From Gemmatimonadota bacterium (GTDB lineage: Bacteria; Gemmatimonadota; Gemmatimonadetes; Palauibacterales; Palauibacteraceae), in NCBI GenBank assembly GCA_032251515.1, contig JAVVDU010000005.1, forward strand, positions 16,396-80,395: a DNA stretch of 64,000 bases, read 5' to 3'. Position 1 is the first letter of the stretch. The number at the start of each line of letters is the position of its first letter. Both the position numbers and the translations under genes were made by a program. Below are positions 33,483-49,474 of the stretch, one piece after another. The notes under the pieces were generated by a model that was not told the DNA's origin, made no database searches, and saw only the letters and a list, made by a program, of their open reading frames with translations.

Positions 33483-35597
33483 GTGACCTCGCTCCCGCTT
33501 CCCGACCTCCGCACGCGGCGCGGCCGCCGCGCGAGCCGTGCGGCCTTCGCCGCCCTGGCCGTTCTCGCGGGGCTCACCGGGCCGCCTTCTCCCGCTGAGG
33601 CGCAGTCCCCGTCGGAGGCGCAGACTCACGGCCGCGACTGGAACGATCCCCGCACGCTCGCGCTCGTCCGGGCCGCGATCGACGCGCGGCGACACCCGTG
33701 GGGCGACAGCACGCTGGAGGCGTTCGACCTGTACGCCGAGGGCCGGGTCCACTACCTGGCCGACTTCGGCGGCGAGGCCGGCCAGCAGGCGCTGCGCGCC
33801 GACCGCATCGCGCTCGAGCTGCGCTGGCGGCGGGACGTCGGGTCGCTGCAGGAGATCGTCGGCCGGCGGTACTCCGAGTGGCTCCCGACCCGGATCCACT
33901 ACCACATCGACCACCTCGCCCTCGTGGTCGACAACTACGGTGACCGCATCCGGATCGGCGAAGGAGACGAGGTGCGCGACGCCCCGCACCCGCTGGCCCC
34001 GCGCGCCCCGGAGATCTACGACTACCGCTTCGTCGACTCGCTGGCGATGCAGATCTCCGGCGTGTGGCGGACGCTGGCGCGCCTCGAGGTGCGCCCGAAG
34101 CGCCCGGGCGAACCGGCCGTCCTCGGCACCCTCGACCTGGACCGCCGCTCGCACGGCCTCACGCGGCTCGCCGTCACCTTCACCCCCGCCTCGTACGTCG
34201 ATCCCCGGCTCGTCCACGTGTCCCTCGAGCTGGAGAACGCGCTCGTGGAGGGACGCACCTGGCTCCCGTCGGCGCAGCGGACGGAGATCCGCCGCCGCCT
34301 GGCGTGGATGGAGCTGCCGTTCGGGTCGTCGATCCGCACGAGCTTCCGCGTCCTGGAATACGACATGGCGCCCGCGCTGCGCGGCGGCGTGCCGCCCGGG
34401 CACCACGTGCGGGCCCGCCCGCGTCGGGACCTGGCGCGGTACGCCGGCTGGCGGACGCCCGCGCTGAAGGCGTGGCCGGAGGACGTACGCACCGATTCCG
34501 TGCGGCTCGAGGAGGTGCGGGATGCCGCCCTGTCGATCGCGGGACGCCGCATCATGGAGGGCGGCGCGGGGACGCGGCTGTACGTCCCCGGCGTCTCCTC
34601 CGCCCTGCGGGTCCGCCGCGCCGAGGGGGTGTTCGCGGGGGCGGGCGTCCGGCACCGGCTGGACGGCCGGCACGAGCTGACCGGGCTGGCCGGATGGGTG
34701 TTCGGGCGCGAGGAGGGGTTCGTGCGCCTCGCCGCCTCGCGCCGGGCGGGCGACGCGACGCTCACCGCTTCGGGATACGTGAACGACCTCGCCGACGCCG
34801 GGCCGTTCCCGGCCGCCGCCGGCCTGGTGGCCAGCCTCGGAGCCCTGGCCGACGGTGACGACTGGACGGACCCCTACTTCCGCACCGGCGCCTCGCTGTC
34901 CCTGGCCGGCCCGCTCGGCCGGCTCGGGACGGGCGAGGCGGCACTCGCGGTGGAGCGTCACGACGGGGCCGCGCTGGAGCTCGACCCGCTCGGCGGCGTG
35001 GACGCGCGGCCGGTCCGGCCGATCGACGAGGGGACGGACCTCCTCCTGTCCCTCCGGCTGGAGCGGTACGCGGGGACGCTGGCCGGCACGCGACTCACCG
35101 CGACGCTGGCGGCAGACCTCTCGGCGGGCAGCGACTTCGGTTACACCCGGTGGACGGGCGAGCTGCGGGCGCTGCCGCGCGAGCCGGACGCCGCGTGGGC
35201 GTGGGAGGCGCGGGCCGGGCTCGGCGCCGGGACGGGCACGCTCCCGGCCCAGAAGCTGATCCTGCTGGGGGGCCGGGGCACGCTGCCGGGCTACCGGGTG
35301 CGCGCGTTCGGGGGCGACGCGGGCGGGTTCCTGCACGTGGCCGTCTCCCGGTCGGTGTGGCACCCCTGGGTCCGCGTGCGGGCCCTCGGTGCGGCCGGCT
35401 GGGCGGACGCCGGCGGCCCGGGCCGCGACGCCGCCGCCCGGTTCGGCGTCGGGCGGACGGGCGACCTGCGGACGTCGCTCGGCGGCGGCGTAGCCCTGTT
35501 CTACGACGTGGTGCGGGTCGACGGGGCGCGCGGCCTGCGGGACGGCCGCTGGGAGTGGATGGTGTCCGTGTCGCCGGCGTTCCGGGCGCCGCTGTAG
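33483..35597 (+). CDS. secreted hypothetical protein (704 aa)
   Basis: The signal peptide has an RTRRGRR n-region and an AFAALAVLAGL h-region. It is a long uninterrupted frame with strong third-position GC bias. No motif was recognised. Confidence 0.5.
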   Translation: MTSLPLPDLRTRRGRRASRAAFAALAVLAGLTGPPSPAEAQSPSEAQTHGRDWNDPRTLALVRAAIDARRHPWGDSTLEAFDLYAEGRVHYLADFGGEAGQQALRADRIALELRWRRDVGSLQEIVGRRYSEWLPTRIHYHIDHLALVVDNYGDRIRIGEGDEVRDAPHPLAPRAPEIYDYRFVDSLAMQISGVWRTLARLEVRPKRPGEPAVLGTLDLDRRSHGLTRLAVTFTPASYVDPRLVHVSLELENALVEGRTWLPSAQRTEIRRRLAWMELPFGSSIRTSFRVLEYDMAPALRGGVPPGHHVRARPRRDLARYAGWRTPALKAWPEDVRTDSVRLEEVRDAALSIAGRRIMEGGAGTRLYVPGVSSALRVRRAEGVFAGAGVRHRLDGRHELTGLAGWVFGREEGFVRLAASRRAGDATLTASGYVNDLADAGPFPAAAGLVASLGALADGDDWTDPYFRTGASLSLAGPLGRLGTGEAALAVERHDGAALELDPLGGVDARPVRPIDEGTDLLLSLRLERYAGTLAGTRLTATLAADLSAGSDFGYTRWTGELRALPREPDAAWAWEARAGLGAGTGTLPAQKLILLGGRGTLPGYRVRAFGGDAGGFLHVAVSRSVWHPWVRVRALGAAGWADAGGPGRDAAARFGVGRTGDLRTSLGGGVALFYDVVRVDGARGLRDGRWEWMVSVSPAFRAPL

Positions 35598-35677
35598 GCG
35601 GGGGCGGGGCGGGCGGCGGCGTCCTCGCGTCAAGAATACTTGACTCGTCTTTTTACGAGTCGTAGTTTGTTGACCTG

Positions 35678-36838
35678 ATGAGCGAGAACCCGTTCCGCAT
35701 CGGCGTCCACGTGTCGGGCCGCTACTTCACCGACCGGGCGGACGAGGTGAAGCGGCTCCGGCGCGCGATGCGGGAGCCGACCCGACTCCTCGTGCTCGGC
35801 CCGCGCCGCATGGGCAAGAGCTCCGCCATCGCCGTGGCGGCGGAGGGGGCGCGCAGGGACGCCATCCTGGTGGTCCGCGCGGACCTGTCTACCGCGAGCA
35901 CGCTCGTGGACGTGGCGAACCGGCTGCTCGCCTCCCTGTCGGCCCAGCGGGAGCCGTCCTGGCTGGCGAGGCTGGCCGGCTCCCTCGCCCCGACCGTCTC
36001 GCTGACCATGGACCCCGTCACCGGCACGCCACGAATCGTCTTCGGCGCGGAGACGCGAAGCGCGCCCGCCGCCCGGCAGCGACGCTCCCTCGAGGAGGTC
36101 ATCGCGGCCCTGGCGGGCGAAGCGGCGGGTGGCGGGCGGGTCGCGGTCGTCCTCGATGAATTCCAGGCGATCGTGCGCCTCGGGGGCGAGGAGGCGGAGT
36201 GGCACCTCCGCGACCTGATGCAGCGCCACGCGGAGGTCAGCTTCATCTGCGCGGGTTCGGAGGTCTCCCTCGTCCACGAGATGCTGGGAGAGCACCGGGC
36301 GTTCTTCCGCACCTTCGAGCTGCTGCACGTCGGGCCGGTAGAGCCGGAGCACCTGGCCCGCTGGATCGACGCGCGCCTCGGCGGCGCCGGTGTCGAGTCG
36401 GACGGCGCGGGGGAAGAGCTCGTGGACTTGGCCGGACCGCGGACGCAGGACATACTCCAGGTCGCCCGGCACGTGTACGTCCGCGGGCTCGCGCGCGGCT
36501 CGGTGTCGGCCGCGGACGTGAGGCCCGCGCTGCTCGACGTGGTCCGCGAGGAAGACCATGTCATCCGCACCGTCTGGTCTGATCTCACCGTGAATCAGCA
36601 GAACGTGCTCCGCGCCGTCGCGTCCGGCGCAGAGCAGATCTTCTCGGCCGCCGTGCGGTCGAGGTTCGGTCTGCCGACCTCCTCGACCGTGGCGGCGGCC
36701 GTCGCCGCCCTGGAGAAGCGCGGGATCCTCGTGCGTGAGGCGGACGGAAGCGTCCGCTTCGACAACCCCTTCCTCAGGCGCTGGGTGGAGCGGGAAGCGG
36801 GAGGAGACGTGCTTCCCGTGGAGATGCCGCAGGACTGA
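35678..36838 (+). CDS. AAA-type ATPase of the Arch_ATPase/DUF234 family
   Basis: Walker A (VLGPRRMGKSS) and Walker B (VVLDEFQ) are present. The C-terminal region resembles the DUF234 winged-helix extension. The product is 386 aa. Confidence 0.7.
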   Translation: MSENPFRIGVHVSGRYFTDRADEVKRLRRAMREPTRLLVLGPRRMGKSSAIAVAAEGARRDAILVVRADLSTASTLVDVANRLLASLSAQREPSWLARLAGSLAPTVSLTMDPVTGTPRIVFGAETRSAPAARQRRSLEEVIAALAGEAAGGGRVAVVLDEFQAIVRLGGEEAEWHLRDLMQRHAEVSFICAGSEVSLVHEMLGEHRAFFRTFELLHVGPVEPEHLARWIDARLGGAGVESDGAGEELVDLAGPRTQDILQVARHVYVRGLARGSVSAADVRPALLDVVREEDHVIRTVWSDLTVNQQNVLRAVASGAEQIFSAAVRSRFGLPTSSTVAAAVAALEKRGILVREADGSVRFDNPFLRRWVEREAGGDVLPVEMPQD

Positions 36839-36928
36839 ACCGCGCCCCCGGTGGCGGACCGTATCCGCACTGCGGAACGAGATGGAGGCGCGCGGGGCGG
36901 CGGGGCGGCCGCCCCGCGCCCGCCGACC

Positions 36929-37924
36929 TCAGAGCGCGCGCAGCGGCGGCCCGATGAACGGGGCGTTCAGCACGCAGGAGATCTGCTGGCCGGCCACGAG
37001 GATCCCGCGGACGTCGCCGCCGCCCCCGCCTCCGCCACTCGCCGCACCGGCTGCCGCGCCGGCGCCAGCTCCGATCAGCGTGCCCTTCCGGCCGCCGAAG
37101 ATGCTTCCGAGGATCGCTCCCGTGATGGCGCCCTGCACCGCACGGCCCCCCGCGCTCGACCCGCCGCCCCCGGAGCCCACCCGCTGCAGGCGTGTCTCGG
37201 CGACGGCGGAGGCATCGATCGGGTAGGACTCGCCCTCGATCACGACCTGCGTGAAGCGGATCGACATGGAGCCGTTCCCGTCACGGTCCGGCTCCACGAC
37301 GTCCACGATCTCGCCCTGCATGCGCGCCCCCGCCGGGATCACCTCGCGCCCCTCGGAGTCGAGGACGGGACGCGACAGGGTGGCGGTGAAGCCGTCTCCC
37401 GGACGGTTCCATTCCGTGCTGAGCTGCTGCTGGAGCCGCACGTCGAAGTTCGTCCCGGCGGGCGCCGGCGTGGACGCGGGAACCGGTTCGGGCGTCGTCT
37501 CGACCGGCTCCGGCGCCGGGAGCTGGGCCAGCCGCTCGGGCACCGGCTCGGGCGCGGGATCCGGGTCAGGTTCGGGCTCGGGTTCCGGTTCGGGTTCCGG
37601 TTGCGGCTGCGGCGCCGCCTCCGGCTCGGGCTCGGGTTCCGGCTCGGGGGCCGGGGCCGGCGCGGCCGCGTCCTCTCCCGCCGCCGCCGGTTCCGGCGTC
37701 TCCGGGAGCGGCGCCTCGTCGGGACGGCCCTCGTCCCGCAGCTCCGGGAGGGTCTCCGGCTCCGCGAGCACCAGGTTCAGCTCCCGGTCCACCTCGCCGC
37801 GCCGCGCCTCCCACGCCTCGGCGGTCCCGTCCGGGCCCGCGTCCGCGCCGCACGCCGCCGCGAGAGCCGCGAGGAGCAGGACTCCTCCGGTGAGTGCGCC
37901 CTTCAGGCTTCCCGTGGCTCGCAT
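36929..37924 (-). CDS. lipoprotein with (PE)n linker and C-terminal glycine-zipper (SlyB/17-kDa-antigen-like)
   Basis: The frame was trimmed to MRATGSLKGALTGGVLLLAALAAACG (lipobox). A long PEPEPEPE/PQPQ low-complexity segment is present. The C-terminus GAITGAILGSIFGG...GAGAGAAAGAASGGGGGGG is a glycine-zipper. Confidence 0.6.
   Translation of the reverse strand: MRATGSLKGALTGGVLLLAALAAACGADAGPDGTAEAWEARRGEVDRELNLVLAEPETLPELRDEGRPDEAPLPETPEPAAAGEDAAAPAPAPEPEPEPEPEAAPQPQPEPEPEPEPEPDPDPAPEPVPERLAQLPAPEPVETTPEPVPASTPAPAGTNFDVRLQQQLSTEWNRPGDGFTATLSRPVLDSEGREVIPAGARMQGEIVDVVEPDRDGNGSMSIRFTQVVIEGESYPIDASAVAETRLQRVGSGGGGSSAGGRAVQGAITGAILGSIFGGRKGTLIGAGAGAAAGAASGGGGGGGDVRGILVAGQQISCVLNAPFIGPPLRAL
37530..37690. 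repeat. low-complexity hexanucleotide-like repeat (ccggag/cccgag; encodes PEPEPE on minus strand)
   Basis: Seen directly as reiterated cgggtt/ccggtt/cgggct units. Boundaries are approximate. Confidence 0.6.
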
Positions 37925-38424
37925 GTCGTCTCCTCCTGCCGTCGCTCCGTCTCGCCCATCTCTCTCACCCACGCAACCGGTCCAGGTTCCGGGATGTTTC
38001 GGAACGGGGGGTGAGGGGTGGCGTTCAGGGAGGAGTCCTGCCCGCTGCGCGCGGGTATCCGCGCGTACTCCTGACCGGCACTATCGATCGTTCTCTCCCC
38101 GGACCGGGCGGATCCAGATGAGCCTGGAGAAGGGGGACCCGCGAACGCCGGAGGACGGAGCGTCCCCGATCGGGCCGTTCCGTCCCATCCGCCTCTCCTG
38201 GCGCCGGGCGCGGCGCGGCAGCGGATCGCGCGACCGGACGGCCCTTCCATCCCCCGGGCAGGATCCCGCCTGCCACGGGCACGATTCCTGCTGACCTCCC
38301 CGGCTGCGGCCCCACATGGTGAACCCCCCGCGCGCCGGCTTCCGGTGCGGCGACGACCGCGATGGAGGCGGGATTTCCCCCGCCGTTCCGTAACGCGGCC
38401 GAGGTTTCTGTGTGGAGGTGCTTT

Positions 38425-39645
38425 ATGTCGCTTCGTCGCCCCCCCCCCAGACCTGTAGAGGCGGGCCGGATCACGCCCGGCCGGGGAACTGATCCCCGCG
38501 CCGGTTCTTTCCGCCGGAGGCTCCCGAGTCCACTCGCCCGAATCTTCATGACGCTCATGGTCATGCCAGCCGTGATCGCCTTCTCCGGTTGCAGGGACGA
38601 GCCGACGGGACCGACTCCTTCCGCGGACAGCCCGACCGCCGGTCGGGACGCCGTGGCGAGCGCGGTCCATCCAGATCAGCTCGAACCGGTGCAGCGCGTG
38701 GCCCGGACGATCGCCATGGCCCTCGCGGACTCGGACGTCCGTACCAACCTGATCCAGCAGATGCGCGGCTCCGCGTACAACGAGCACAAGCTCGTGCTCA
38801 ACCCCTCGGCCGCACGTGCTGCGGAGTCCTCTCTGACGCAGGCGGCGCGAAGCGCCTGCGGCGGGGCAACGTGCCTGGAGGAACTGCTGGTCAGCCTCGG
38901 ATTCGAGGTCGACTTCTACGTGCCGTCGGAAACGCAGCGCCGGACGTGGACGGGTTCCGGTCGGTATCTCGTCGCGGGCTTGTCGGACCCGGACGCGGAG
39001 ATCGCGCTTGCCTTCGACGCCTCCGGACAGTCGCGCTGGATCACGAGCCTGGACAACCCGGGGTTCGATGTGGTGCTGGTCTTGCATCCCGCGGAACCGA
39101 AATCGGAGACGGAGCGGACGCGGCAGCCCGAGGGCGCGACGATCGAGGATGCGACCGACCCACGCACGGAAGTGCTTTCCTCAGAGGCGCACTTCCAGGT
39201 CTGCCCTGATCCTGAAGTGTGTGGCGGTGTTGGTGGCGGCGGTCCGCCCCCTCCCGGGTCTGACCCTCCCCCGCCCCCGGTGACCGGTACCTTCGTCGAG
39301 AGGATCTTCGTGGAGTTCGGAGACGGAATCTTCGCCGGGGAACCAGAGATCTACTTCATCTCGGGATCGGAGTTCTCCGGGCCCCAAGGATTTGTGTCTG
39401 CCACTCGTGATGTCAAGAAGAAACAGTGGGTTACCCTCAATCTCCTGATCACCACAGAGGAACCAGCTCTGCACGGCCCGATTCTCGCGCTTCTGTTCGA
39501 GAGCGACGGCGACTTTCTGAACGACGGCGATGACCCGAAGGGTGAGTCCGTACCCCTGATAACGGGGAGTGGTTCGTATCTCTCCGTGGACCGTTTCAGG
39601 CAGAGAAACGAAGCAGTGTACGATGTGGCGATCACGTCATCGTGA
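38425..39645 (+). CDS. hypothetical lipoprotein (possible Tat-type signal), first gene of GC-poor island
   Basis: ATG 38425 has a GGAGG SD 6 nt upstream. The N-terminus is MSLRRPPPRPVEAG...SFRRRLPSPLARIFMTLMVMPAVIAFSGC, with an RR motif, a hydrophobic core and a lipobox Cys. The internal segment is CPDPEVCGGVGGGGPPPPGSDPPPPP. A C10 tract covers codons 5-8. The alternative start at Met 38548 lacks an SD. Confidence 0.55.
   Translation: MSLRRPPPRPVEAGRITPGRGTDPRAGSFRRRLPSPLARIFMTLMVMPAVIAFSGCRDEPTGPTPSADSPTAGRDAVASAVHPDQLEPVQRVARTIAMALADSDVRTNLIQQMRGSAYNEHKLVLNPSAARAAESSLTQAARSACGGATCLEELLVSLGFEVDFYVPSETQRRTWTGSGRYLVAGLSDPDAEIALAFDASGQSRWITSLDNPGFDVVLVLHPAEPKSETERTRQPEGATIEDATDPRTEVLSSEAHFQVCPDPEVCGGVGGGGPPPPGSDPPPPPVTGTFVERIFVEFGDGIFAGEPEIYFISGSEFSGPQGFVSATRDVKKKQWVTLNLLITTEEPALHGPILALLFESDGDFLNDGDDPKGESVPLITGSGSYLSVDRFRQRNEAVYDVAITSS
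38439..38448 (+). repeat. homopolymeric C10 tract
   Basis: Seen directly (gtcgcc ccccccccag). It lies within codons 5-8 of the 38425 start, or in the 5' leader if the start is 38548. Confidence 0.85.
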
Positions 39646-39703
39646 TGCCTCGGAACCCAGTTTCTGCACATCGCCGGCACGCGGCGTGGAAGGAGTACAA
39701 GAT

Positions 39704-40357
39704 ATGGAACTGCGAGGACTGCGACGGCGGAGTATGCGCGTCGCTGCACTCCTGGGCACTGCTTGGGTCATGATGTTCAGTACGAGTGTCGCCCAGGAAA
39801 TCGGTCGTACTTCCACGCGGACAACTCCCGAGATCGGGCTCGAACTCTGGGCGGGCAGGTCCCCTGAAGCTGGAAGTCCGAGTCGCTTCGCGGACGGAAC
39901 CGGAGGATCATCGGGGCTTGGCCTTTCAGTGGCCCTGACACCACGATGGAGAGGACGGGTGGACCTGACCTTTGCCGACCAGGATCCGGGGGCCACTCTG
40001 TATCACGTTCTTCTCGGCGCGGACTACGAGCTGCTCCCGCCCGGGGGTCGCTTCGGAGTGCGGACCTACGCGGGCCTCGGTGCGGCGATCGTGGACGGTC
40101 CCATAGTGCGCGCCCCCTTGCAACCCGGTTCACAGGAAACATTCCCGCTGGAAATCAGCGAGCGCTGGTTCGAACTCGCCACCGGCCTGGAGGCCCACTA
40201 CCGGGTGCACCGCTTCTTCGAACCGTTCGCGCGGGTTCGGGCGATGGTCGCCTTCCCGGGGGATGAAGTCGTGCAGTTCAGCTTCGAGGACCCCGACGCC
40301 GGCGACGGCCCCCTGTGGAGCTTCCCGCTGCAACTCGGCGTCCGTGCGAGCTTTTGA
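39704..40357 (+). CDS. small outer-membrane beta-barrel protein (OmpW/OmpA-barrel-like), hypothetical
   Basis: ATG 39704 has an AAGGAG SD 8 nt upstream. The signal is MELRGLRRRSMRVAALLGTAWVMMFSTSVAQ. The product has about 217 aa of alternating strands and a C-terminal Phe (GVRASF). Confidence 0.6.
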   Translation: MELRGLRRRSMRVAALLGTAWVMMFSTSVAQEIGRTSTRTTPEIGLELWAGRSPEAGSPSRFADGTGGSSGLGLSVALTPRWRGRVDLTFADQDPGATLYHVLLGADYELLPPGGRFGVRTYAGLGAAIVDGPIVRAPLQPGSQETFPLEISERWFELATGLEAHYRVHRFFEPFARVRAMVAFPGDEVVQFSFEDPDAGDGPLWSFPLQLGVRASF

Positions 40358-40400
40358 CGCACACTCCGCACTTCCCCTCCCCGGTCCGGCCTCTCCGGCC

Positions 40401-41987
40401 GTGACCGGGGGAGGGGGCGCGCGGAGCCGGCGGCACTGGCTATGGGCGCACCGGCCGTCTGCTCTGATCGTCCTTCTCGGGCTGCTGGGCGTCGCCGCGT
40501 GCGGGGACGACGGTCCGCCCACGGGTCCGGACCCGGACGCGAAGCCGGCGGGCTTCCAGATCGAGATCCGGTACGTTGAGGGGACCGACCCGACGCCGGA
40601 GCAGCGGGCGATGTTCGAGCAGGCGGCGGCCCGGTGGGAGGAGGTGATCGTGGGGGACGTGCCGGCCGTGCGGGTGCGACGGCGGGCACCGTTCACGTGC
40701 GTGAATCTCACGGCGCCAGCGCTGGACGAGGAGATCGATGACATCGTCGTGTTCGTTGAGATCGGACCGCTGGATGGGCCATGGCAGGGGACGGGCAACG
40801 GGGGAGAACTCGCGGGGCAAGCGGGCGTCTGCGTACTGCGCGGCAGTTCCCTGCCGGTCGTGTCGGGCATCACGCTCGATGAGGAGGACCAGGCCCTGTT
40901 CTCTGTTCCGCTTGTGCTCCACGAACTCGGCCATGCGCTGGGATTCTTACCGAGTGTATGGCTGCGGCTTGGGCTATTGAAGGACCCGTCGGACCCGGGG
41001 TACGGACGACCGGGTCCGCTGCAAGCGGTGGCGGACGCGACGGTGAGCGAGTGGGAGGCGGCCGGGCGGTTCGGGCTGCCGGGCGGGGCGATGCTGTCCG
41101 AGCACCTGGTGGTGGGCGAGGGGCTCGGGACCTGGACGGACGGCCCCGGCGACGACGAGCTCGTGAGCCTGATCCGGTTCGACGTCGAAGGGGTGCTGGC
41201 TGCGCCACCGCTGAATGCGACGCTCGAGCTTACCCCAGTGACGGCGCAGGGGGATGGGGGTGAAATCGTGTCCCCCCATGGTGCGGCGGGGGCATGGAGT
41301 GAAGAAACAGTGTCCTGGAACACGATGCCGACTATCGGAACTCAGTCAGGAAGCGCTCTTCCCGCAACTTGTGCTCCCACGTGTGACCTGGACGTAACGC
41401 GTCCGGTCGTCGACTGGGTGCTCGGGGGACCGAATCACGGCATCATCGTCAGGCCGGTATTCACCGACCAGTTCGACGCCAACGTGGCCTTCCACACGCG
41501 GCACGCGGCCGACCCGGCGGTGCGGCCGCGGCTGCGGATCTCGCCGGACACGCACTTCGCCGGTCCCGCCGCCCGGGCAGCGTTCGAGGCGCTGGGCGGG
41601 ACGGCCTACGACAGTGCCAAGGTGCCGGTCCAGGACGGGCTGCCGGTGCGTCCCGGTACGGTGGACGCCCACTGGCGGGCCTCCGTGATGCCCAGTGAGC
41701 TCATGGCGCAGCTCGGCCACATCCTGAGCGCCGTGACGATCGGGGCGATGGCGGATCTCGGCTACGAGGTGGATTTCGCTGCGGCGGATCCATGGTCGCT
41801 GCGGGTGAGTGACGTCCGTGTGCAGCCGGAGCTTGCCCTGCCACCCGTCGATGGGGTGGGAGGCGGCCCGCTGTACCGGGTGACACCGACCGGTCACCTC
41901 CAAGTGATCCGGCCCGCGGCAACCGGGGCGACCCTTCAGAACATCTTCGACGCACGTATCGAATCCCCGACAAGGAGGCTCCGATGA
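40401..41987 (+). CDS. zinc metalloprotease lipoprotein, leishmanolysin-like (peptidase M8-like, HExxHALGF)
   Basis: VPLVLHELGHALGFLPSVW matches the HExxHALGF zinc-binding signature of the M8 family. The M8 assignment is from memory. The signal and lipobox are LIVLLGLLGVAACGDD. GTG 40401 is the only in-frame start upstream of the signal peptide. Confidence 0.65.
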   Translation: MTGGGGARSRRHWLWAHRPSALIVLLGLLGVAACGDDGPPTGPDPDAKPAGFQIEIRYVEGTDPTPEQRAMFEQAAARWEEVIVGDVPAVRVRRRAPFTCVNLTAPALDEEIDDIVVFVEIGPLDGPWQGTGNGGELAGQAGVCVLRGSSLPVVSGITLDEEDQALFSVPLVLHELGHALGFLPSVWLRLGLLKDPSDPGYGRPGPLQAVADATVSEWEAAGRFGLPGGAMLSEHLVVGEGLGTWTDGPGDDELVSLIRFDVEGVLAAPPLNATLELTPVTAQGDGGEIVSPHGAAGAWSEETVSWNTMPTIGTQSGSALPATCAPTCDLDVTRPVVDWVLGGPNHGIIVRPVFTDQFDANVAFHTRHAADPAVRPRLRISPDTHFAGPAARAAFEALGGTAYDSAKVPVQDGLPVRPGTVDAHWRASVMPSELMAQLGHILSAVTIGAMADLGYEVDFAAADPWSLRVSDVRVQPELALPPVDGVGGGPLYRVTPTGHLQVIRPAATGATLQNIFDARIESPTRRLR

Positions 41988-42433
41988 TCGCATCCCGCTG
42001 GAACGCGCTGCGGACAGCACTGCTGGTCCTCGCCGTCCTCGTCGTGCCGGCCTGCGACGACGACGATCCGACCGAACCCGTGAGCCTCACGACGGCAGAC
42101 CTCGTGGGCAGCTACGCGGCGACGGTGTTCACGGTCACCGAGGATGGATCGGTGGCCGATGTGCTGACGGTGGGCGGCTCCCTCGAGATCGACCTCGCTG
42201 CCGACAACACGACCTCGGGCTCCCTCGTCATTCCGGCCTCCCTCTCAGAGAGCGGCACCGAGGAGATACTGAGCCTGGCGGGTACCTGGTCGCTGAGCGG
42301 GAGCACGGTGACGTTCGTCCAGGGGGCCGACACGTTCATTCGCGACTCGGACTGGGCCGCGTCCCCCGGCCGCCTGGAGGCGGAGGAGGATTTCGGGGGC
42401 ATCCTGATCCGGGTCGTGCTCGAACGTATCTGA
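41984..42433 (+). CDS. small hypothetical lipoprotein, translationally coupled to the metalloprotease
   Basis: ATG 41984 overlaps the protease stop (ATGA). A strong SD AAGGAGG lies 5 nt upstream. The lipobox is VLVVPACDDDD. The product is 149 aa. Confidence 0.65.
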   Translation: MIASRWNALRTALLVLAVLVVPACDDDDPTEPVSLTTADLVGSYAATVFTVTEDGSVADVLTVGGSLEIDLAADNTTSGSLVIPASLSESGTEEILSLAGTWSLSGSTVTFVQGADTFIRDSDWAASPGRLEAEEDFGGILIRVVLERI

Positions 42434-42549
42434 GCACGACGCCGGCCTTTCGAAAGGAGTGACATCGAACTGACCGGCGCCCCCTGCTGCTCCCTCTCCC
42501 GGCCCGGCTCTCGAGTCGTGCCGGGGAGGGGCCCGGGGAGCGTAGTGCC

Positions 42550-45360
42550 TCAACCCCCCTTGCTGGCGTACCAGGAGTCGCCCGTCCCGACGTCCACGCG
42601 CAGGGGGATCGACAGCTCCACGGCCCCCTCCATCTCCTCCCTCACGATCCCGACCAGGTCCTCCGCCGCCCCCGCGGGCACCTCGAACAGCAGCTCGTCG
42701 TGGACCTGGAGGAGCATGCGGCCGGGTCCCTCGCCCAGCCGCTCGTGCAGGCGGATCATGGCGAGCTTGATGATGTCGGCGGCGGTGCCCTGGATGGGGG
42801 AGTTCGTGGCGGTCCGCTCGCCGAACCCGCGCACGCCCGGGTTGCGGGAGCGGATCTCGGGGATGTAGCGGCGGCGGCCCAGCAGCGTCTCGACGTAGCC
42901 CTTCTCGCGCGCCGTCTCCTTCATCGTCTCCAGGTAGTCGCGCACGCCGGCGAAGCGCTCGAAGTAGCCGCGGATGAACTCCTCGGCCGCGGTCCGGGGA
43001 ATGCCGAGCTGGCGGGCGAGCGACACGGCTCCCTGCCCGTAGATCGTGCCGAAGTTGATCGTCTTGGCGCGGTCCCGCATCGCCGGCGTGACGTCGCCGG
43101 GCGCCACGCCGAAGATCCGCGCGGCCGTCTCGCGGTGGATGTCGCCGCCGGTCCGGAACGCCTCTACGAACGCCCGGTCCCCGGAGAGATGCGCCAGGAC
43201 GCGCAGCTCGATCTGCGAATAGTCGGCCGACACGAACACGTGGCCGGCCTCGGGCACGAAACCCTTGCGGATCTCGCGGCCGAGCGGCGAGCGGATGGGG
43301 ATGTTCTGGAGGTTCGGATCGGAGGAGGAGAGCCGGCCCGTCGCCGCCACCGTCTGGTTGAAGCTCGTGTGGATCCGGCCCGTCTCCGGGTTCACCATCG
43401 CCGGGAGCTTGCGCACGTAGGTGGAGTCCAGCTTGTCCAGCTCCCGGTGCTCGAGGATGAGCCGGGGCACCTGGTGGCCCTGCTCCGCGAGCTCCGACAG
43501 CACGGACTCGTCCGTGGAGGGGCCGGTCTTCGTCTTCCGCACCACCGGCAGCTCCAGGCGGTCGAACAGCAGCTCGCGGAGCTGGGGCACCGAGCGCAGG
43601 TTCACCTCCGAGCCCGCCAGCTTGTGGATCTCTTCCTCGACGAGCTGCAGCTCGCCGGCCAGCTTCTCTCCCAGCCGGGCGAAGAAGTGCCGGTCGATCC
43701 GCACGCCCCGCATCTCCATCGCCGCCAGCACCGGCACGAGCGGCATCTCGACGCGGTGCAGCAGGTCGAGCATCGCGTGCGCCTCGAGTTCGTCCTTCAG
43801 GATCCCGAACAGGCGGAGCGTGACGTCGGCGTCCTCCGCCGCGTACTCCGTGGCCCGGTCGAGGGGGACTTCGGAGAACGGGATCTGCGCGCGGCCGCTC
43901 CCGCACACGTCCGCGTAGGAGATCAGCTTCCGCTTCAGGCGCTCGAGGCCCAGCACGTCGAGCCCGTGCGTGCGCTTGCCGGGATCGAGGCAGTACGAGG
44001 CGAGCGACGTGTCGAAGGCGACGCCGCCGAGCGGCGCGCCCGCCCGCTCGAGCACGATCATGTCGTACTTGATGTTGTGGCCGACCTTGGGCACGGATGG
44101 GTCGGCCAGCAGGGCCCGGAGCCCGGCCAGCGGCTCCGAGCCGAGGGGTGGGAGGTTCGGCACCTCCGAGACGTCGAAGGCGAAGCTCGGGTTCCCTTCC
44201 GCGTCCGGCACGGCGGACGGGGGACGGTGGCCGAACGGGAGGTACCAGGCCCGTCCGGGCGCGGCGGCGAGGGAGATCCCGACCAGGCGGGCGCGCAGCG
44301 GATCGAGGGAGGTCGTCTCGGTGTCGACGGCGAGCATCTCCGCGCGCCGCAGCTCGGCCAGGACCGCCGGCAGGTCGGCGGGGTCGGTGATGGCCGCGTA
44401 GTCGTCCTCTCCCGGAGCGGGGCCCGGCACCTCGCTCCGCTCGTCCGCCGCGGGCGCGTCCGGCGCGAACTCCCGGGCCAGCGTGTGGAACTCGAGCGCC
44501 AGGAACAGCTCGCGCAGCCGGGCGCGGTCGGGCTCCTCCCGCTTCAGGGCCTCCAGATCCAACTCGACCGGCGCGTCCTTGCGGATCGTCACGAGCCGCT
44601 TGGAGAGCCGGGCGGCCTCGGCGTGCGCGAGCAGGGCGTTGCGGACCCGCGTGCCGTCGATCTCCTCCGCGTGCTCGAGCAGGACCTCGAGCGAGCCGTA
44701 CCGGGCCAAAAGGTCCGGCGCCGTCTTCGGCCCGATCCCCCGTACCCCGGGCACGTTGTCCGACGAGTCGCCGATCAGCGCCAGGTAGTCCACGACATGG
44801 GCAGGCGGCACGCCGAGCCGCTCGGAGGCGTTCTCCGGCCCCACCTCGGACTCCTCCACGGCGCCCGCCCCGCCCCGGCCCGGGTTCAGCAGGTGCACGT
44901 CGTCGTCGATGAGCTGGTAGAAGTCCTTGTCGCCGGACACGATCACGGTCCGCAGGCCGTGCTCCGAGGCCCGGGCGGCGAGCGTACCGATCACGTCGTC
45001 GGCCTCCCAGCCCTCCACCTCGATCACAGGAACCCGGAAGCCCTCCACGACCTCGCGGCAGCGCGGGAAGGATGCCGCCAGCTCGTCGGGCATCTTCTCG
45101 CGCGTCGCCTTGTAGTCCTCGAACAGCTCCGTCCGGTAGCTGTCGCCGGCGTCGAATACGACGCCGACGTAGTCCGGGCGCCGCTCCTCGAGGATGCGGA
45201 CCAGGAAGCGGGCCAGGCCGAACGGCGCGGAAGTGTTCTCCCCCTTCGACGTGGTCAGCGGGCGGCTGATCATCGCGAAGAAGGCCCGGTAGACGAGCGC
45301 GTGGCCGTCCAGCAGGAACAGGGTGGGCCGGGCGTCCGGGGACGCTGTCGCGGCGGCCAC
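42550..45360 (-). CDS. polA: DNA polymerase I
   Basis: The 5'-3' exonuclease region (LFLLDGHALVYRAFFA), the 3'-5' exo-like domain and polymerase motifs A/B/C (DYSQIELR, RDRAKTINFGTIYG, LLQVHDELLFE) are all present. A GTG start at 45360 was chosen because it sits 2 bp after the slt stop. The ORF track ATG at 45426 would overlap slt by 65 bp. Confidence 0.92.
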   Translation of the reverse strand: MAAATASPDARPTLFLLDGHALVYRAFFAMISRPLTTSKGENTSAPFGLARFLVRILEERRPDYVGVVFDAGDSYRTELFEDYKATREKMPDELAASFPRCREVVEGFRVPVIEVEGWEADDVIGTLAARASEHGLRTVIVSGDKDFYQLIDDDVHLLNPGRGGAGAVEESEVGPENASERLGVPPAHVVDYLALIGDSSDNVPGVRGIGPKTAPDLLARYGSLEVLLEHAEEIDGTRVRNALLAHAEAARLSKRLVTIRKDAPVELDLEALKREEPDRARLRELFLALEFHTLAREFAPDAPAADERSEVPGPAPGEDDYAAITDPADLPAVLAELRRAEMLAVDTETTSLDPLRARLVGISLAAAPGRAWYLPFGHRPPSAVPDAEGNPSFAFDVSEVPNLPPLGSEPLAGLRALLADPSVPKVGHNIKYDMIVLERAGAPLGGVAFDTSLASYCLDPGKRTHGLDVLGLERLKRKLISYADVCGSGRAQIPFSEVPLDRATEYAAEDADVTLRLFGILKDELEAHAMLDLLHRVEMPLVPVLAAMEMRGVRIDRHFFARLGEKLAGELQLVEEEIHKLAGSEVNLRSVPQLRELLFDRLELPVVRKTKTGPSTDESVLSELAEQGHQVPRLILEHRELDKLDSTYVRKLPAMVNPETGRIHTSFNQTVAATGRLSSSDPNLQNIPIRSPLGREIRKGFVPEAGHVFVSADYSQIELRVLAHLSGDRAFVEAFRTGGDIHRETAARIFGVAPGDVTPAMRDRAKTINFGTIYGQGAVSLARQLGIPRTAAEEFIRGYFERFAGVRDYLETMKETAREKGYVETLLGRRRYIPEIRSRNPGVRGFGERTATNSPIQGTAADIIKLAMIRLHERLGEGPGRMLLQVHDELLFEVPAGAAEDLVGIVREEMEGAVELSIPLRVDVGTGDSWYASKGG

Positions 45361-45361
45361 G

Positions 45362-47788
45362 TCAGGGCCCCGCAGCGGGGACTGCGTCCGCGGGGTCCGC
45401 CGAGGCCTTCGCGGGCGCGGCGCCAAGCCCCCACAGCCGGCGGTAGATGTGCCGGTACGCCTGGATCGTCTTCACGTACACGCGCGTCTCCGAGAAGGGG
45501 ATCCGCTCGACGAGGAGCTCCGCGTCGGCGGAGAACTCCGGGAAGCTGCGCCACCGGGCCCAGCGGTGCGGTCCGGCGTTGTAGGAGATGAGCGCGGCCG
45601 GGAGCGCGCCGCCGTTCCGGTCCAGCAGGTCGCGCAGGTAGAGCGTGCCGAGCTCGAGGTTCAGCTCCGCGACGCGGAGCCGGTCCGCGGAGAAGTCGCT
45701 CACCCCGGCGCGCCGGGCCAGCTCGGCGCCCGTGCGCGGCAGGATCTGCATCAGCCCGATCGCCTCGGCGGGCGACGTCACCTCGCGGTCGAACTGGGAC
45801 TCGCGCCGTACCAGGGCCGCCACGAGGGCCGGGTCGAGGCGGCGGCGGACCGCGACCTCGCGCAGCGGCTCGCCGTACACGAGGGGGTAGACGCCGCGCA
45901 GCAGGTCGTCCGTCCAGGCGCCCCCGCCCTGCCGCCGCACCGCGTCGGCGAGGGCCGTCCCCTGCCAGCTCCAGCCCCGCTCGTTCAGGAGGAGGGCCAG
46001 CGCCAGCCGGGCGGGCGCCGACTCCCCGGTCCGCTCGCGGGTCGAGAGCTCGCGCACCGCGCGCGCCCGCCAGCCGAGGACGCGAAGCAGGTCGAGCCGC
46101 TCCACGAGCGCCAGGTCGGTCGGACGGGGCGGCGGCGCGGGCGAGGCGGCGCGCCGCGGGACGTGGTCCCACGGATCGATCCCCAGGGCCCGGGCCGCGA
46201 GCAGCGCGTAGTACCCGAGCGGGTCGTAGTCGACGGCGGCGCGCCAGGCCGTCCGGGCCGCGACGCTGTCGCCCGCCGCGGCGCGGGCGCGCCCCGTCCA
46301 GTAGAGCGCCGCGTGATGCCAGTTCCCGCCCGGCCAGCGCCGCGGGACCAGCGCGAAGCGCCGCACGGCGTCGACCGGCCTCTCCTCCAGCATCGCCAGC
46401 ATCCCGAGCCGGAACGCGGCCGTGGAGGCGTAGCTGGAGGACGGGTGCAGGTCCAGGGTCCGCTGGTAGGCCGCGGCGGCGCCCGCGAGGTCGCCCCGGT
46501 CGTGCAGGATGTCGGCGACGAGGAACGCCGCGTACGGGCCGTCGGCGGCGGCCGCCAGCTCGGCGACCCGGCGCCACAGCGCGAGCGCCTCCTCGGTGCG
46601 CCCCTGCCGGTACCAGGATCGCCCGGCCAGGAACAGCGCCGCCGCCCGGCGGCGCTGGGCCCCGGGGGGCTCGGAAACGGATGGGGCCGCGGAGGCACCG
46701 GAGGCCGCGGGGTCCGCGGCGGCATCCGCCCCGGCGGGCGCGTCGAGCCACGGGGCGAGCGCGGTCCGCGTCTCGGCGTAGCGCCGGCGGGCGAACCAGG
46801 TCTCCGCGAGCTCCAAACGGATCGCCGGCCGCTCGGCCTCGGGCGCCTCCGCGAGCACCCGCTCCAGCAGCTCCACGGCCCGGCGAGCGCGGCCGGCGGC
46901 GAGGTCGGTGGCGGCCACGAGACGCAGCGACGCGAGGGTCGTGTCGAGGGCGAAAAGCGTCTCTCCGGCCGCCGCATCCGCCCGTCCCGTCTCGAGGGCA
47001 CGGCGGGCCGCCCGCGCCGCGGCGACGGTGTCGCCCCGCGCCAGCAGCACGGGGATCGTCCACTCCCCCGCGAGGGTGGCGGCCGTCCCGGCGCCCAGCG
47101 AATCGACGGTGGCCAGCGCCCGCGCCGTGTCCCCCGCCCGGAAGGCGGCGCGCGCCACCTCGAGGCGCACGGAGTCCCGCGACAGGGCCCGGTCGGCGAG
47201 CGCGGCCGCCGCCACGCGCGCCGCGGAATCGGCGAGCGCGGTGCGGCCGAGGGCCTGCAGGGCGGACAGGCGGAGCCAGCCCCCGATCTCCGGACGGGCC
47301 CGGGCCGCCTCCAGCCACGCCCCGGCCGCCTCGGCGTCGCGACCCAGGCGCTCCAGGGCGCGTGCGCGGCCGGCCAGGGTCGCGAGGGCGGCGTCGGGCG
47401 AGTCCGCCGCGTCGTCCAGGCGCGCGAGGGCGCCCTCAGCGTCGCCGAGCTCGAGCCGCGCGAGCCCCCGCAGCCGGCCCGCCTCGGCAGCCGACGCCTC
47501 GCCGCTCCACGCGCGCTCGGCCAGCAGGCGGTCCACGGTCCGCCAGGCCCGCGCCGCCGTCCAGGCCCGCGCCGCCGCCAGTACCAGTCCCTCGTCGGCA
47601 TCCCGGCCCGCCGCGGCGAGAGCGGGAGCCAGGAGACGGGCCGCCCTCAGCGGCCGGTCCGCCGCGACGAGGGAATCGGCCCGGAGGGCGAGACGGTCGG
47701 GCTCGGACGTCTGCGGGACCGCCGGGCCCGGCGTCCCGAGGAACAGCATGGCGGCCGCCAGGCGGGCCGCGACGCGGTGCACCCTCAT
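45362..47788 (-). CDS. slt: soluble lytic murein transglycosylase (Slt70-like: Ala/Arg-rich superhelical domain + SLT domain)
   Basis: The C-terminal SLT catalytic motif (ESQFD...GLMQI...YNAG) follows about 550 aa of TPR-like Ala-rich repeats. The frame was trimmed to MRVHRVAARLAAAMLFLG (CAT verified at 47786-47788). This start overlaps the upstream stop (ATGA). Confidence 0.82.
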   Translation of the reverse strand: MRVHRVAARLAAAMLFLGTPGPAVPQTSEPDRLALRADSLVAADRPLRAARLLAPALAAAGRDADEGLVLAAARAWTAARAWRTVDRLLAERAWSGEASAAEAGRLRGLARLELGDAEGALARLDDAADSPDAALATLAGRARALERLGRDAEAAGAWLEAARARPEIGGWLRLSALQALGRTALADSAARVAAAALADRALSRDSVRLEVARAAFRAGDTARALATVDSLGAGTAATLAGEWTIPVLLARGDTVAAARAARRALETGRADAAAGETLFALDTTLASLRLVAATDLAAGRARRAVELLERVLAEAPEAERPAIRLELAETWFARRRYAETRTALAPWLDAPAGADAAADPAASGASAAPSVSEPPGAQRRRAAALFLAGRSWYRQGRTEEALALWRRVAELAAAADGPYAAFLVADILHDRGDLAGAAAAYQRTLDLHPSSSYASTAAFRLGMLAMLEERPVDAVRRFALVPRRWPGGNWHHAALYWTGRARAAAGDSVAARTAWRAAVDYDPLGYYALLAARALGIDPWDHVPRRAASPAPPPRPTDLALVERLDLLRVLGWRARAVRELSTRERTGESAPARLALALLLNERGWSWQGTALADAVRRQGGGAWTDDLLRGVYPLVYGEPLREVAVRRRLDPALVAALVRRESQFDREVTSPAEAIGLMQILPRTGAELARRAGVSDFSADRLRVAELNLELGTLYLRDLLDRNGGALPAALISYNAGPHRWARWRSFPEFSADAELLVERIPFSETRVYVKTIQAYRHIYRRLWGLGAAPAKASADPADAVPAAGP

Positions 47789-49248: not shown

Positions 49249-49474
49249 CCGCGTCTCTTCCCCCCGGGTCCCCCTGCGTCGCGCCCGCCGGGAGCGAAAC
49301 TGCGGGCGAGCGGCGATCCGCCGCCAGCGCCGGCGGCGGGTCCGGCGGCGGCGCCGCCGCCGGTGCCGCCGGAGCCGGGGGCCGGATGCGCCGCGGGGCG
49401 CCCGGAGGCGCCCCGCGAGGTCCCGCCCGTCTCCTCCCCCCGCCGCACCACGGCACGGGGGGAAAGCCCGCGAA

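Follow-up and report, generated by a model that had tools for sequence, protein, structure and literature searches.

What entered, and by what route, the DNA that lies beside polA in a Gemmatimonadota bacterium is the question raised by the 64,000-nt stretch analyzed here (the window; contig JAVVDU010000005.1 of assembly GCA_032251515.1, positions 16,396 to 80,395). Four co-directional genes adjacent to polA, denoted g1 to g4, specify a lipoprotein, a small secreted protein, a leishmanolysin-type (M8) zinc metallopeptidase lipoprotein, and a small lipocalin-like lipoprotein, respectively. A preliminary description made from the sequence alone had interpreted the block at 38.3-42.45 kb as a horizontally acquired secreted-protease module. 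That interpretation proved correct in outline, but the magnitude of GC depletion, the extent of the insertion, and the unity of the module were wrong. The locus instead is a real but fairly ordinary accessory islet of exported envelope genes that is compositionally atypical and lineage-specific. The best explanation of the whole, which we consider fairly probable, is an islet located at the junction between polA and an Omp85-like gene in which the portion bearing g1 to g4 is foreign and comprises a mosaic acquired by recombination.

The GC content of 38300-42450 is 67.5% and that of 38400-41400 is 66.6%, compared to 73.3% for the whole window. Values of 52-58% had been reported previously from 60-bp samples. 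When 50 consecutive samples of this length were taken across 38.4-41.4 kb, the mean was 66.6%, with four samples at or below 58% and 30 at or above 65%. The drop in GC content therefore is real, but is ~10 points weaker than claimed and the low values span only ~0.9 kb. This trough covers the linker and C-terminal domain of g1, the spacer between g1 and g2, and g2 as far as its midpoint. Its GC content averages 61.5%, with values of 56-62% in 300-bp windows, and of the 12 lowest such windows in the 64 kb, 11 fall within it (64-kb mean 0.733, standard deviation 0.041, minimum 0.56).

Codon usage provides a stronger signal than GC content. The GC content at third codon positions (GC3) is 0.773, 0.716, 0.813, and 0.873 for g1, g2, g3, and g4, respectively, compared to 0.925±0.023 for 25 other genes in the window, which corresponds to z-scores of -6.7, -9.3, -5.0, and -2.3. 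Similarly, an index modeled on the codon adaptation index is 0.49, 0.41, 0.53, and 0.65 for the four genes and 0.76±0.04 for the 25 others, among which the minimum is 0.68. As the reference genes were chosen with a GC3 filter, the test was repeated without gene calls using maximum-phase GC in 450-bp windows. In this frame-independent scan, no long run of depressed third-position GC appeared in the window other than that at 37.8-41.9 kb. Thus, the distinct codon usage proposed in the preliminary description was confirmed in all four genes, and the composition of the block when computed properly is clearly unlike the window background. The stretch also includes the 4-kb segment with the most deviant tetranucleotide profile (0.289 vs. 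0.158±0.038). The segment that begins at 45501 approaches this value (0.281). The region at 45400-49500, which contains a gene for an SLT/TPR transglycosylase and DNA beyond it, is 78-81% GC and deviates in the GC-rich direction, opposite to that of the island.

Two further genes, c and d, precede g1 and have host-like GC3 values of 0.92 and 0.87, respectively. The compositional island consequently is restricted to the right-hand 4.1 kb. Moreover, as c and d also are accessory genes, accessory status alone fails to explain the deviation of g1 to g4. Within the g1 open reading frame (ORF), GC3 in blocks of 50 codons falls from 0.80-0.90 to 0.64-0.70 at approximately nt 39150. The step coincides with the boundary between the conserved N-terminal domain of the protein and a Gly/Pro linker, and could be a recombination junction.

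The distribution of the block among relatives was assessed by comparing 80 polA loci in tblastn searches with the window proteins. The polA product of the window shares 80-81% identity with those of several Gemmatimonadota metagenome-assembled genomes (MAGs) and 56-71% with many more. At 25 Gemmatimonadota loci both flanking genes, polA and the Omp85-like gene, are visible, and the conserved order is ExbB, a TonB-dependent receptor, the SLT/TPR transglycosylase, and polA, followed in convergent orientation by the Omp85-like gene and MaeB. The polA and Omp85-like genes are tail to tail at all 25 loci. The stop codons are separated by only ~11-82 bp at eight of these (L011, with 80% polA identity, and L013, L025, L026, L027, L031, L074, and L080). 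At the remaining loci the gap is 0.5-6.5 kb and is occupied by unrelated cargo: a TPR protein, sulfatase, and DUF3604 protein (L008); SUI1, MscS, and DUF1801 proteins (L010, L014, L016, and L030); an FAD oxidoreductase with or without an S15 peptidase (L022 and L023); trp genes (L019); SSB (L029, L062, and L084); and a SnoaL-like lipoprotein (L054). No homolog of an island gene lies between polA and the Omp85-like gene at any of the 25 loci, and no homologs of c, d, or g1 to g4 were detected by tblastn in 85 loci even at E < 0.05. The block therefore is not conserved in synteny. The adjacent polA/Omp85-like arrangement is ancestral, and the convergent junction is a phylum-wide variable spot in Gemmatimonadota. 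The left edge assigned to the block in the preliminary description is reasonable with regard to composition, but the inserted interval extends over 6.95 kb and also includes c and d.

Signs of a mobility apparatus were sought in parallel. The 64-kb window contains no tRNA genes and no Rfam families. Neither an integrase nor a transposase was found, the previously noted lack of an integrase and of tRNA being borne out by the tRNA, PADLOC, and PHROGs searches, and there are no significant flanking direct repeats around the block. Phage, plasmid, and viral searches produced no matches, and PADLOC and PHROGs yielded weak matches to c and d only, with none for g1 to g4. The locus is thus not a classical integrase-mediated genomic island, but displays the comparative hallmarks of one, namely atypical composition and absence in relatives.

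The block is a mosaic rather than a conserved secreted-protease module. The coherence that the preliminary description attributed to it is contradicted by a cluster that possesses relatives of g1 and g4 without the protease, by the location of g3 homologs elsewhere, and by a hairpin that splits g1-g2 from g3-g4. The cluster lies on a forest-soil contig of 64% GC (L099:1323-3281) and consists of three genes, the first for a g1 homolog of 371 aa, the second for a protein of 142 aa with a signal peptide, and the third for a g4 homolog of 138 aa. The order is that of the window without the M8 protease. The g4 homolog displays 45% identity and its gene overlaps that for the 142-aa protein by 4 nt, and the g1 homolog has the same lipobox, N-terminal domain, poly-Gly linker, and C-terminal domain motifs as g1. 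The locus suggests an ancestral cluster in which g1 and g4 flanked an intervening gene.

The closest homologs of g3 (61-68% identity; L001-L005, L086-L088, and L093) are found on contigs of 72-74% GC, where their neighbors are either genes for SBP_bac_5 and HAMP histidine kinase proteins or a kinase on one side and a sigma-54 regulator on the other. Relatives of g1, g2, and g4 were not detected beside these homologs. This arrangement hints that the g3 protease subfamily normally is tied to a peptide-sensing or uptake system. The order at L001-L004, L086-L088, and L093 is a variable large protein without Pfam matches, the M8/DNRLRE lipoprotein, SBP_bac_5, and the HAMP histidine kinase. More distant g3 homologs (L089 and L090) have downstream of them a gene for a 738-aa HExxH-like protein. 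The possibility that the 752-, 679-, and 738-aa proteins beside g3 homologs are fused equivalents of g1 and g2 was rejected as no similarity was found. A metagenome scan with the g3 alignment identified three loci. Homologs of g4 additionally occur beside small OMP_b-brl-type proteins (L096/97 and L098).

A sequence of events that would account for these patterns begins with the accumulation of DNA at the ancestral tail-to-tail junction, which as a site between convergent gene ends may be "safe" for insertion. The right-hand 4.1 kb would have come from other bacteria with lower GC3, probably other Gemmatimonadota, without a dedicated mobility gene. An older cluster, in which genes for a lipoprotein and a lipocalin-like lipoprotein were accompanied by one for a small secreted or barrel protein, may have been modified when the M8 protease gene was placed ahead of g4. 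The outcome would be two units, the first of which (g1-g2) pairs a rare lipoprotein with a small putative outer-membrane barrel and ends at the strong hairpin, while the second (g3-g4) would provide a translationally coupled M8 lipoprotein and lipocalin-like lipoprotein. Proteins of the g4 type may be in loose but recurrent association with envelope barrels and metallopeptidases.

The acquisition of g1 to g4 by horizontal transfer or recombination is held with moderate confidence. It is favored by the sharp codon deviation, by the empty ancestral site in relatives, by the near-orphan status of g1 and g2, and by the occurrence of g1 relatives in contigs of 60-64% GC (59-60% for L091/L092). As the g3 and g4 families are typical of Gemmatimonadota-like genomes, transfer probably took place within the phylum. 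Several observations weigh against this interpretation. The mechanism of acquisition is unseen given that integrase, transposase, tRNA, flanking repeat, and phage or plasmid similarity all are lacking, and the event is undatable because the nearest genomes with the locus are only 80-81% identical in polA. The best g3 homologs reside in the 72-74% GC contigs and have GC3 values of 0.85-0.89, with no lower-GC donor of g3 found. The GC3 of g4 lies at the limit of host values; the gene is nearly ameliorated. The g3-g4 pairing is unique to the window, as none of 13 g3-homolog loci, which represent ~7 distinct neighborhoods, has a g4 relative. Two of the protein assignments also are vulnerable: the barrel proposed for g2 is without homology support in Pfam, NCBIfam, or hhalign, and the AlphaFold2 (AF2) model of g3 built from 16 sequences was poor (predicted local distance difference test, pLDDT, 49; predicted template modeling score, pTM, 0.42), with only the DNRLRE part confident. 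Finally, the genes may have been inherited vertically within an unsampled genus and lost elsewhere.

The last point can be extended to an alternative without any horizontal transfer, in which g1 to g4 are vertical, lineage-restricted, weakly expressed, and fast-evolving genes at a rearrangement-prone junction, and in which lower GC3 reflects relaxed pressure from codon selection or GC-biased conversion. The abundance of the g3 and g4 families in Gemmatimonadota-like metagenomes, the lack of mobility genes and target-site repeats, and the distance of the nearest comparable genomes are all in accord with this proposal. The cargo at the junction in relatives also is mostly housekeeping-like with host-like GC, and the g3 homologs themselves are somewhat low in GC3 relative to typical host genes here. 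However, the deviation is large, with z-scores down to -9, and is sharply bounded, whereas the lineage-specific neighbors c and d have normal GC3. The GC3 switch at the domain boundary inside g1 resembles a recombination junction, and the g1 homologs sit in 60-64% GC contigs. Vertical descent alone is therefore considered possible but unlikely, and recombinational acquisition of g1 to g4 is preferred.

The protein g3 was examined with profile searches. It matches Pfam Peptidase_M8 (PF01457) in two stretches with a score of 24.7 bits (gathering score 21; E = 1.1e-5), and a profile of the g3 family matches the structure of leishmanolysin (1LML; E = 1.7e-8) also in two stretches, the HExxH helix and the segment that includes the third His and Met-turn (SHIK...DELMAP). 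The M8-like zinc protease in the preliminary description was thereby corroborated. The profile positions between the two stretches instead match the DNRLRE/CBM96 structures 8WAB (E = 7.9e-8) and 7VBO. In g3 itself, this domain is recognized by NCBIfam DNRLRE_dom (NF033679; 61.5 bits, cut-off 34; aa ~249-380) and by Pfam PF24517 (37 bits, cut-off 26). There are 15 full-length homologs with 41-68% identity and the same architecture. In the resulting alignment of 16 sequences, C34, H174, E175, H178, H424, and M435 (DxHWR...ELM) are invariant, Cys-34 being the residue that follows GVAA in the lipobox of g3. Precomputed PF01457 annotation was attached to 46 of 69 g3 matches, and one homolog is named [quoted passage not shown]. 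Many other M8 proteins with Ig-like or PKD domains derive from Gemmatimonadota, e.g., Candidatus Palauibacter, and the M8 family therefore is typical of the phylum. On the basis of the conserved sequence features, g3 is assigned as an M8 metzincin with an intact active site and with a DNRLRE/CBM96 beta-sandwich inserted between the HExxH motif and third His, at the position where leishmanolysin has a shorter insert of ~60 residues. The protein is predicted to be a membrane-tethered zinc endopeptidase, whose DNRLRE domain may attach it to its substrate, a polysaccharide or glycoprotein of the cell envelope.

The start codon of g4 (MDT8435622.1 / RRA92_02595) overlaps the g3 stop codon (ATGA) and is preceded by an AAGGAGG Shine-Dalgarno (SD) sequence. 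The lipobox ends in VVPA ahead of Cys-24, which is invariant in the g4 family. This family consists of ~140-150-residue lipoproteins, with 773 cluster representatives below an E-value of 1e-3, of which 368 are below 1e-10. Weak matches to Lipocalin_4 and GH43_C were noted in 10 and nine, respectively, of 41 family members, and g4 itself reached no Pfam threshold. The AF2 model of g4 is a small closed barrel with a pLDDT of 89 that rises to ~98 in the mature part, and Foldseek searches with the model retrieved lipocalins, fatty acid-binding proteins (FABPs), and the Shewanella lipoprotein 3LHN. The protein thus is modeled as a lipoprotein with an eight-stranded, lipocalin-like closed antiparallel barrel. 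The closest homolog of g4 (57% identity; L100:1188-2276) is encoded 16 bp upstream of a gene for a 239-aa lipoprotein that contains the sequence HELGHSLSLPH and has weak matches to Reprolysin_3, M7, and M10. This is a second instance of a g4-type gene beside that for a zinc peptidase.

These arrangements raise the alternative that g3 and g4 are a protease and its inhibitor or escort, of the type exemplified by potempins or serralysin inhibitors, in which g4 keeps g3 latent and the rest of the block is incidental. Potempins are described as outer-membrane lipoprotein inhibitors of 98-132 residues whose genes are located beside those for their target peptidases (PMC9890683), a precedent which, with the translational coupling of g3 and g4 via the ATGA overlap and the metzincin-like lipoprotein adjoining the closest g4 homolog, favors such a pair. 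Nevertheless, the better fold matches of g4 are to barrels that are not inhibitors (designed barrels, ToxS, 3LHN, and lipocalins), and the absence of a g4-type gene from all 13 g3-homolog loci is at odds with a dedicated partnership. Most genomic contexts of the g4 family (L096/97, L098, and L099) also are without a protease and in its place feature small OMP-like proteins or a homolog of g1, and 773 cluster representatives look too broad for a dedicated M8 inhibitor. The proposal as an account of the locus is rather unlikely, although by analogy g4 is plausibly a partner of envelope proteins and possibly a protease inhibitor or escort. A bolder version would regard the g4 family, with at least 773 clusters, as a new and widespread class of proteins that are anchored in the membrane and assist or inhibit metallopeptidases of the envelope, both in Gemmatimonadota and in allied soil bacteria, with g3-g4 a self-contained, transferable protease-plus-antidote cassette that was captured into an older g1-g2-g4 cluster and with CBM96 targeting exopolysaccharide; this we regard as quite unlikely. 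Last, a metagenome assembly or binning artefact in which foreign reads were joined chimerically into the contig, suggested by the MAG source and deviant composition of the segment, is very improbable: syntenic Gemmatimonadota genes lie on either side of the segment in a single 86.6-kb contig, such that two precise chimeric joins would be needed, the composition shifts inside the intact g1 ORF both halves of which match the same homologs, and g3 and g4 are Gemmatimonadota-type proteins.

The products of g1 and g2 are near-orphans within the mosaic, with no family match for either in Pfam, NCBIfam, PADLOC, or PHROGs. The g1 protein (MDT8435619.1 / RRA92_02580) is composed of an N-terminal domain of ~200 residues with the motifs NEHKL, DFYVP..TQRRTW, and HPAEPK, the Gly/Pro linker, and a C-terminal domain of ~120 residues. 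Its lipobox, which like those of g3 and g4 was called by direct reading of the sequence, ends in AFSG ahead of Cys-56 that is invariant in the g1 family. A search of 5.8 billion proteins with g1 retrieved a single match other than itself (P0071; 31% identity over the N-terminal domain, E = 1e-20). Only two homologs of g1 were seen. One is encoded at L091/L092, where the next gene specifies a 179-aa signal-peptide protein that ends in IQF. The other is that in the forest-soil cluster (L099:1323-2438; 31% identity). As the alignment with homologs begins upstream of the start codon chosen by NCBI (38548) and the ATG at 38425 is preceded at 6 nt by a GGAGG SD sequence, the NCBI start is doubtful and probably makes the protein too short.

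The GC drop at the domain boundary of g1 had prompted the idea of a polymorphic toxin in which a constant N-terminal domain bears a variable C-terminal "toxin" and g2 provides the "immunity" protein. Pairwise similarity between the C-terminal domains of g1 and its homolog is not significant (z = 1.2). However, the motifs T[YF]..., GDG..G...F, and E.D...D.DD are common to the C-terminal domains of g1 and the L099 homolog, which indicates that the domain is divergent and not swapped, and the toxin was rejected as the principal interpretation.

Only the last 132 aa of g2 (MDLTFADQ...) are annotated by NCBI (RRA92_02585), which loses both the AAGGAG-led ATG and the signal peptide. The public starts of g1 and g2 thus appear to be too far downstream. 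The AAGGAG sequence lies 8 nt ahead of the upstream ATG, and the leader is of the signal-peptidase-I type (...TSVAQ/E). By heuristic reading, g2 possesses ~8 amphipathic segments of alternating hydrophobicity and a C-terminal Phe (...GVRASF). The search of 5.8 billion proteins returned only g2 itself. Homology to neighboring small outer-membrane proteins (OMPs) was rejected as BLASTP was negative, the z-score in Smith-Waterman alignments with shuffled sequences was 0.2, and the hhalign probability was 0.1. The small beta-barrel OMP that the preliminary description recognized in g2 agrees with the strand pattern and C-terminal Phe, but gains no hidden Markov model or profile match; a small eight-stranded outer-membrane beta-barrel is plausible only, judged from these sequence features.

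The export signals attributed to the four co-directional genes were verified as lipoboxes in g1, g3, and g4 and as the signal-peptidase-I leader in g2. The prominence given in the preliminary description to strong SD sites also was justified: only two credible start codons in the window, those of g2 (39704) and g4 (41984), are preceded by AAGGAG at the right distance. The layout suggests that g1-g2 and g3-g4 form two expression units. Between them is the hairpin just 3' of the g2 stop codon. The 91-nt stretch that includes it (40350-40440) has an RNA minimum free energy (MFE) of -62 kcal/mol (z = -5.6), and none of 200 shuffled sequences was as stable. The 3' arm of the hairpin holds the putative GTG start codon of g3 at 40401. 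No other in-frame start ahead of the g3 lipobox is free of overlap with g2; the next one upstream (ATG at 40263) falls inside g2. The hairpin sequesters this GTG. It probably is a terminator or attenuator without a U-tail that divides g1-g2 from g3-g4, but may alternatively be a translational control element.

The coordinates of these and neighboring features are compiled in Table 1. The ATPase encoded by c (MDT8435617.1, annotated by NCBI as "AAA family ATPase") scores 35.7 bits with AAA_16 and 24.4 bits with MarR_2 and also matches AAA_22. This gene, of "archaeal ATPase" type, directly follows the Omp85-like gene and is inside the inserted interval but outside the compositional island; the site is empty of c in all relatives. 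The lipoprotein encoded by d matches Pfam Gly-zipper_YMGG under the cut-off (E = 9.5e-5), and an alternative start codon, ATG at 37924, is associated with an AGGAGG SD sequence. A 12-nt periodic direct repeat at 37458-37679 on the minus strand encodes the Pro/Glu-rich (PEPEPE...) linker of d. The boundaries of the island cited previously, polA and a gene-poor stretch of ~500 bp, were confirmed, the latter corresponding to the divergent d/g1 intergenic region. No credible ORF, Pfam match on any ORF, Rfam family, or sigma-70-like promoter match was found in this region. Intergenic and antisense ORFs throughout 37.9-42.5 kb gave zero Pfam matches and were taken as spurious ORFs of high-GC DNA. 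At the opposite end, the stem-loop in the g4/polA spacer is a likely bidirectional terminator region.

Table 1. Features of the polA/Omp85-like junction and of the islet within it (window positions).
Feature	Positions	Strand	Remarks
Lineage-specific interval	35598..42549		6.95 kb, stop of Omp85-like gene to stop of polA
Omp85-like gene	33483-35597	+	Left flank
Gene c, AAA_16/ATPase_2-type ATPase with C-terminal MarR-like winged helix-turn-helix	35678..36838	+	Assigned by Pfam
Gene d, Gly-zipper ("SlyB-like") lipoprotein with Pro/Glu-rich repeat linker	36929..37972	-	
Divergent d/g1 intergenic region	37973..38424		452 bp, 71.7% GC
g1, lipoprotein	38425..39645	+	
GC trough	39150..40050 (about)		
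g2, orphan secreted protein, putative eight-stranded outer-membrane beta-barrel	39704..40357	+	
GC-rich hairpin	40373..40417	+	
g3, lipoprotein, leishmanolysin-type (M8) zinc metallopeptidase with inserted DNRLRE/CBM96	40401..41987	+	Start codon uncertain
g3 HELGH	40920-40934	+	Residues 174-178
g3 DNRLRE domain	41127-41540 (about)	+	
g3 third His	41670-41672	+	H424
g3 Met-turn Met	41703-41705	+	M435
g4, small lipocalin-like (calycin) beta-barrel lipoprotein	41984..42433	+	
Convergent g4/polA spacer with GC-rich stem-loop	42434..42549		MFE -64.8 kcal/mol, z = -2.35
polA	42550-45426	-	Right flank; 71.9% GC

The locus does not overturn current understanding, and its value lies mainly in annotation and in hypotheses on envelope proteolysis in Gemmatimonadota, a phylum that is little studied and for the most part uncultured. 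It is a clean, small example of accessory envelope genes accumulating at a convergent core-gene junction without recognizable mobile-element machinery. Furthermore, it draws attention to three uncharacterized groups of proteins: a subfamily of M8 metzincins with a carbohydrate-binding module inside the catalytic domain, a large family of lipocalin-like lipoproteins that sometimes are encoded beside metallopeptidases, and the very rare two-domain lipoprotein family represented by g1.

Leishmanolysin, or GP63 (MEROPS M8; 1LML), is the reference system for g3. The Met-turn Met of GP63 is 11 residues after the third His, and the Leishmania protein is held at the membrane by a GPI anchor. In common with GP63, g3 has an HExxH motif, a distant third His, and a Met-turn Met 11 residues further on, as well as lipid anchoring to the membrane, which for g3 is a predicted N-terminal lipoprotein modification. 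In contrast, g3 is a bacterial lipoprotein in which ~246 residues, including a whole DNRLRE/CBM96 domain, separate HExxH from the third His, whereas the gap left by the aligned stretches in 1LML is ~55-60 residues. Only ~100 residues of g3 align to 1LML, and the N- and C-terminal domains of GP63 are not detectable by sequence. CBM96 was defined in an alginate lyase, as a module that binds alginate specifically (PMC9971899); the module of g3 is located inside a peptidase catalytic domain, whereas that of the founding member is appended to a polysaccharide lyase.

The counterparts of g4 are bacterial lipocalin-like lipoproteins (Lipocalin_4, PF13648; 3LHN and 4QRL), from which it differs in scoring under the Pfam threshold and in belonging to a family that apparently is uncurated. 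Compared to the potempins of Tannerella forsythia and the serralysin inhibitors LupI, Inh, and APRin, g4 lacks sequence homology and is located downstream of the protease gene, its fold matches to non-inhibitors are stronger, and only two of five distinct contexts pair a g4-type gene with a protease. The locus as a whole resembles integrase-less islets at convergent-gene junctions in its variable cargo between core genes, atypical composition, and absence in relatives. The comparison with integrase-less hot spots differs in that the genomes available are distant (56-81% polA identity), so that hotspot behavior on a short timescale is beyond its reach. Overall, each component belongs to a known kind, the locus to the genomic islets that lack an integrase, g3 to the M8 metzincins, and g4 to the lipocalin-like lipoproteins.

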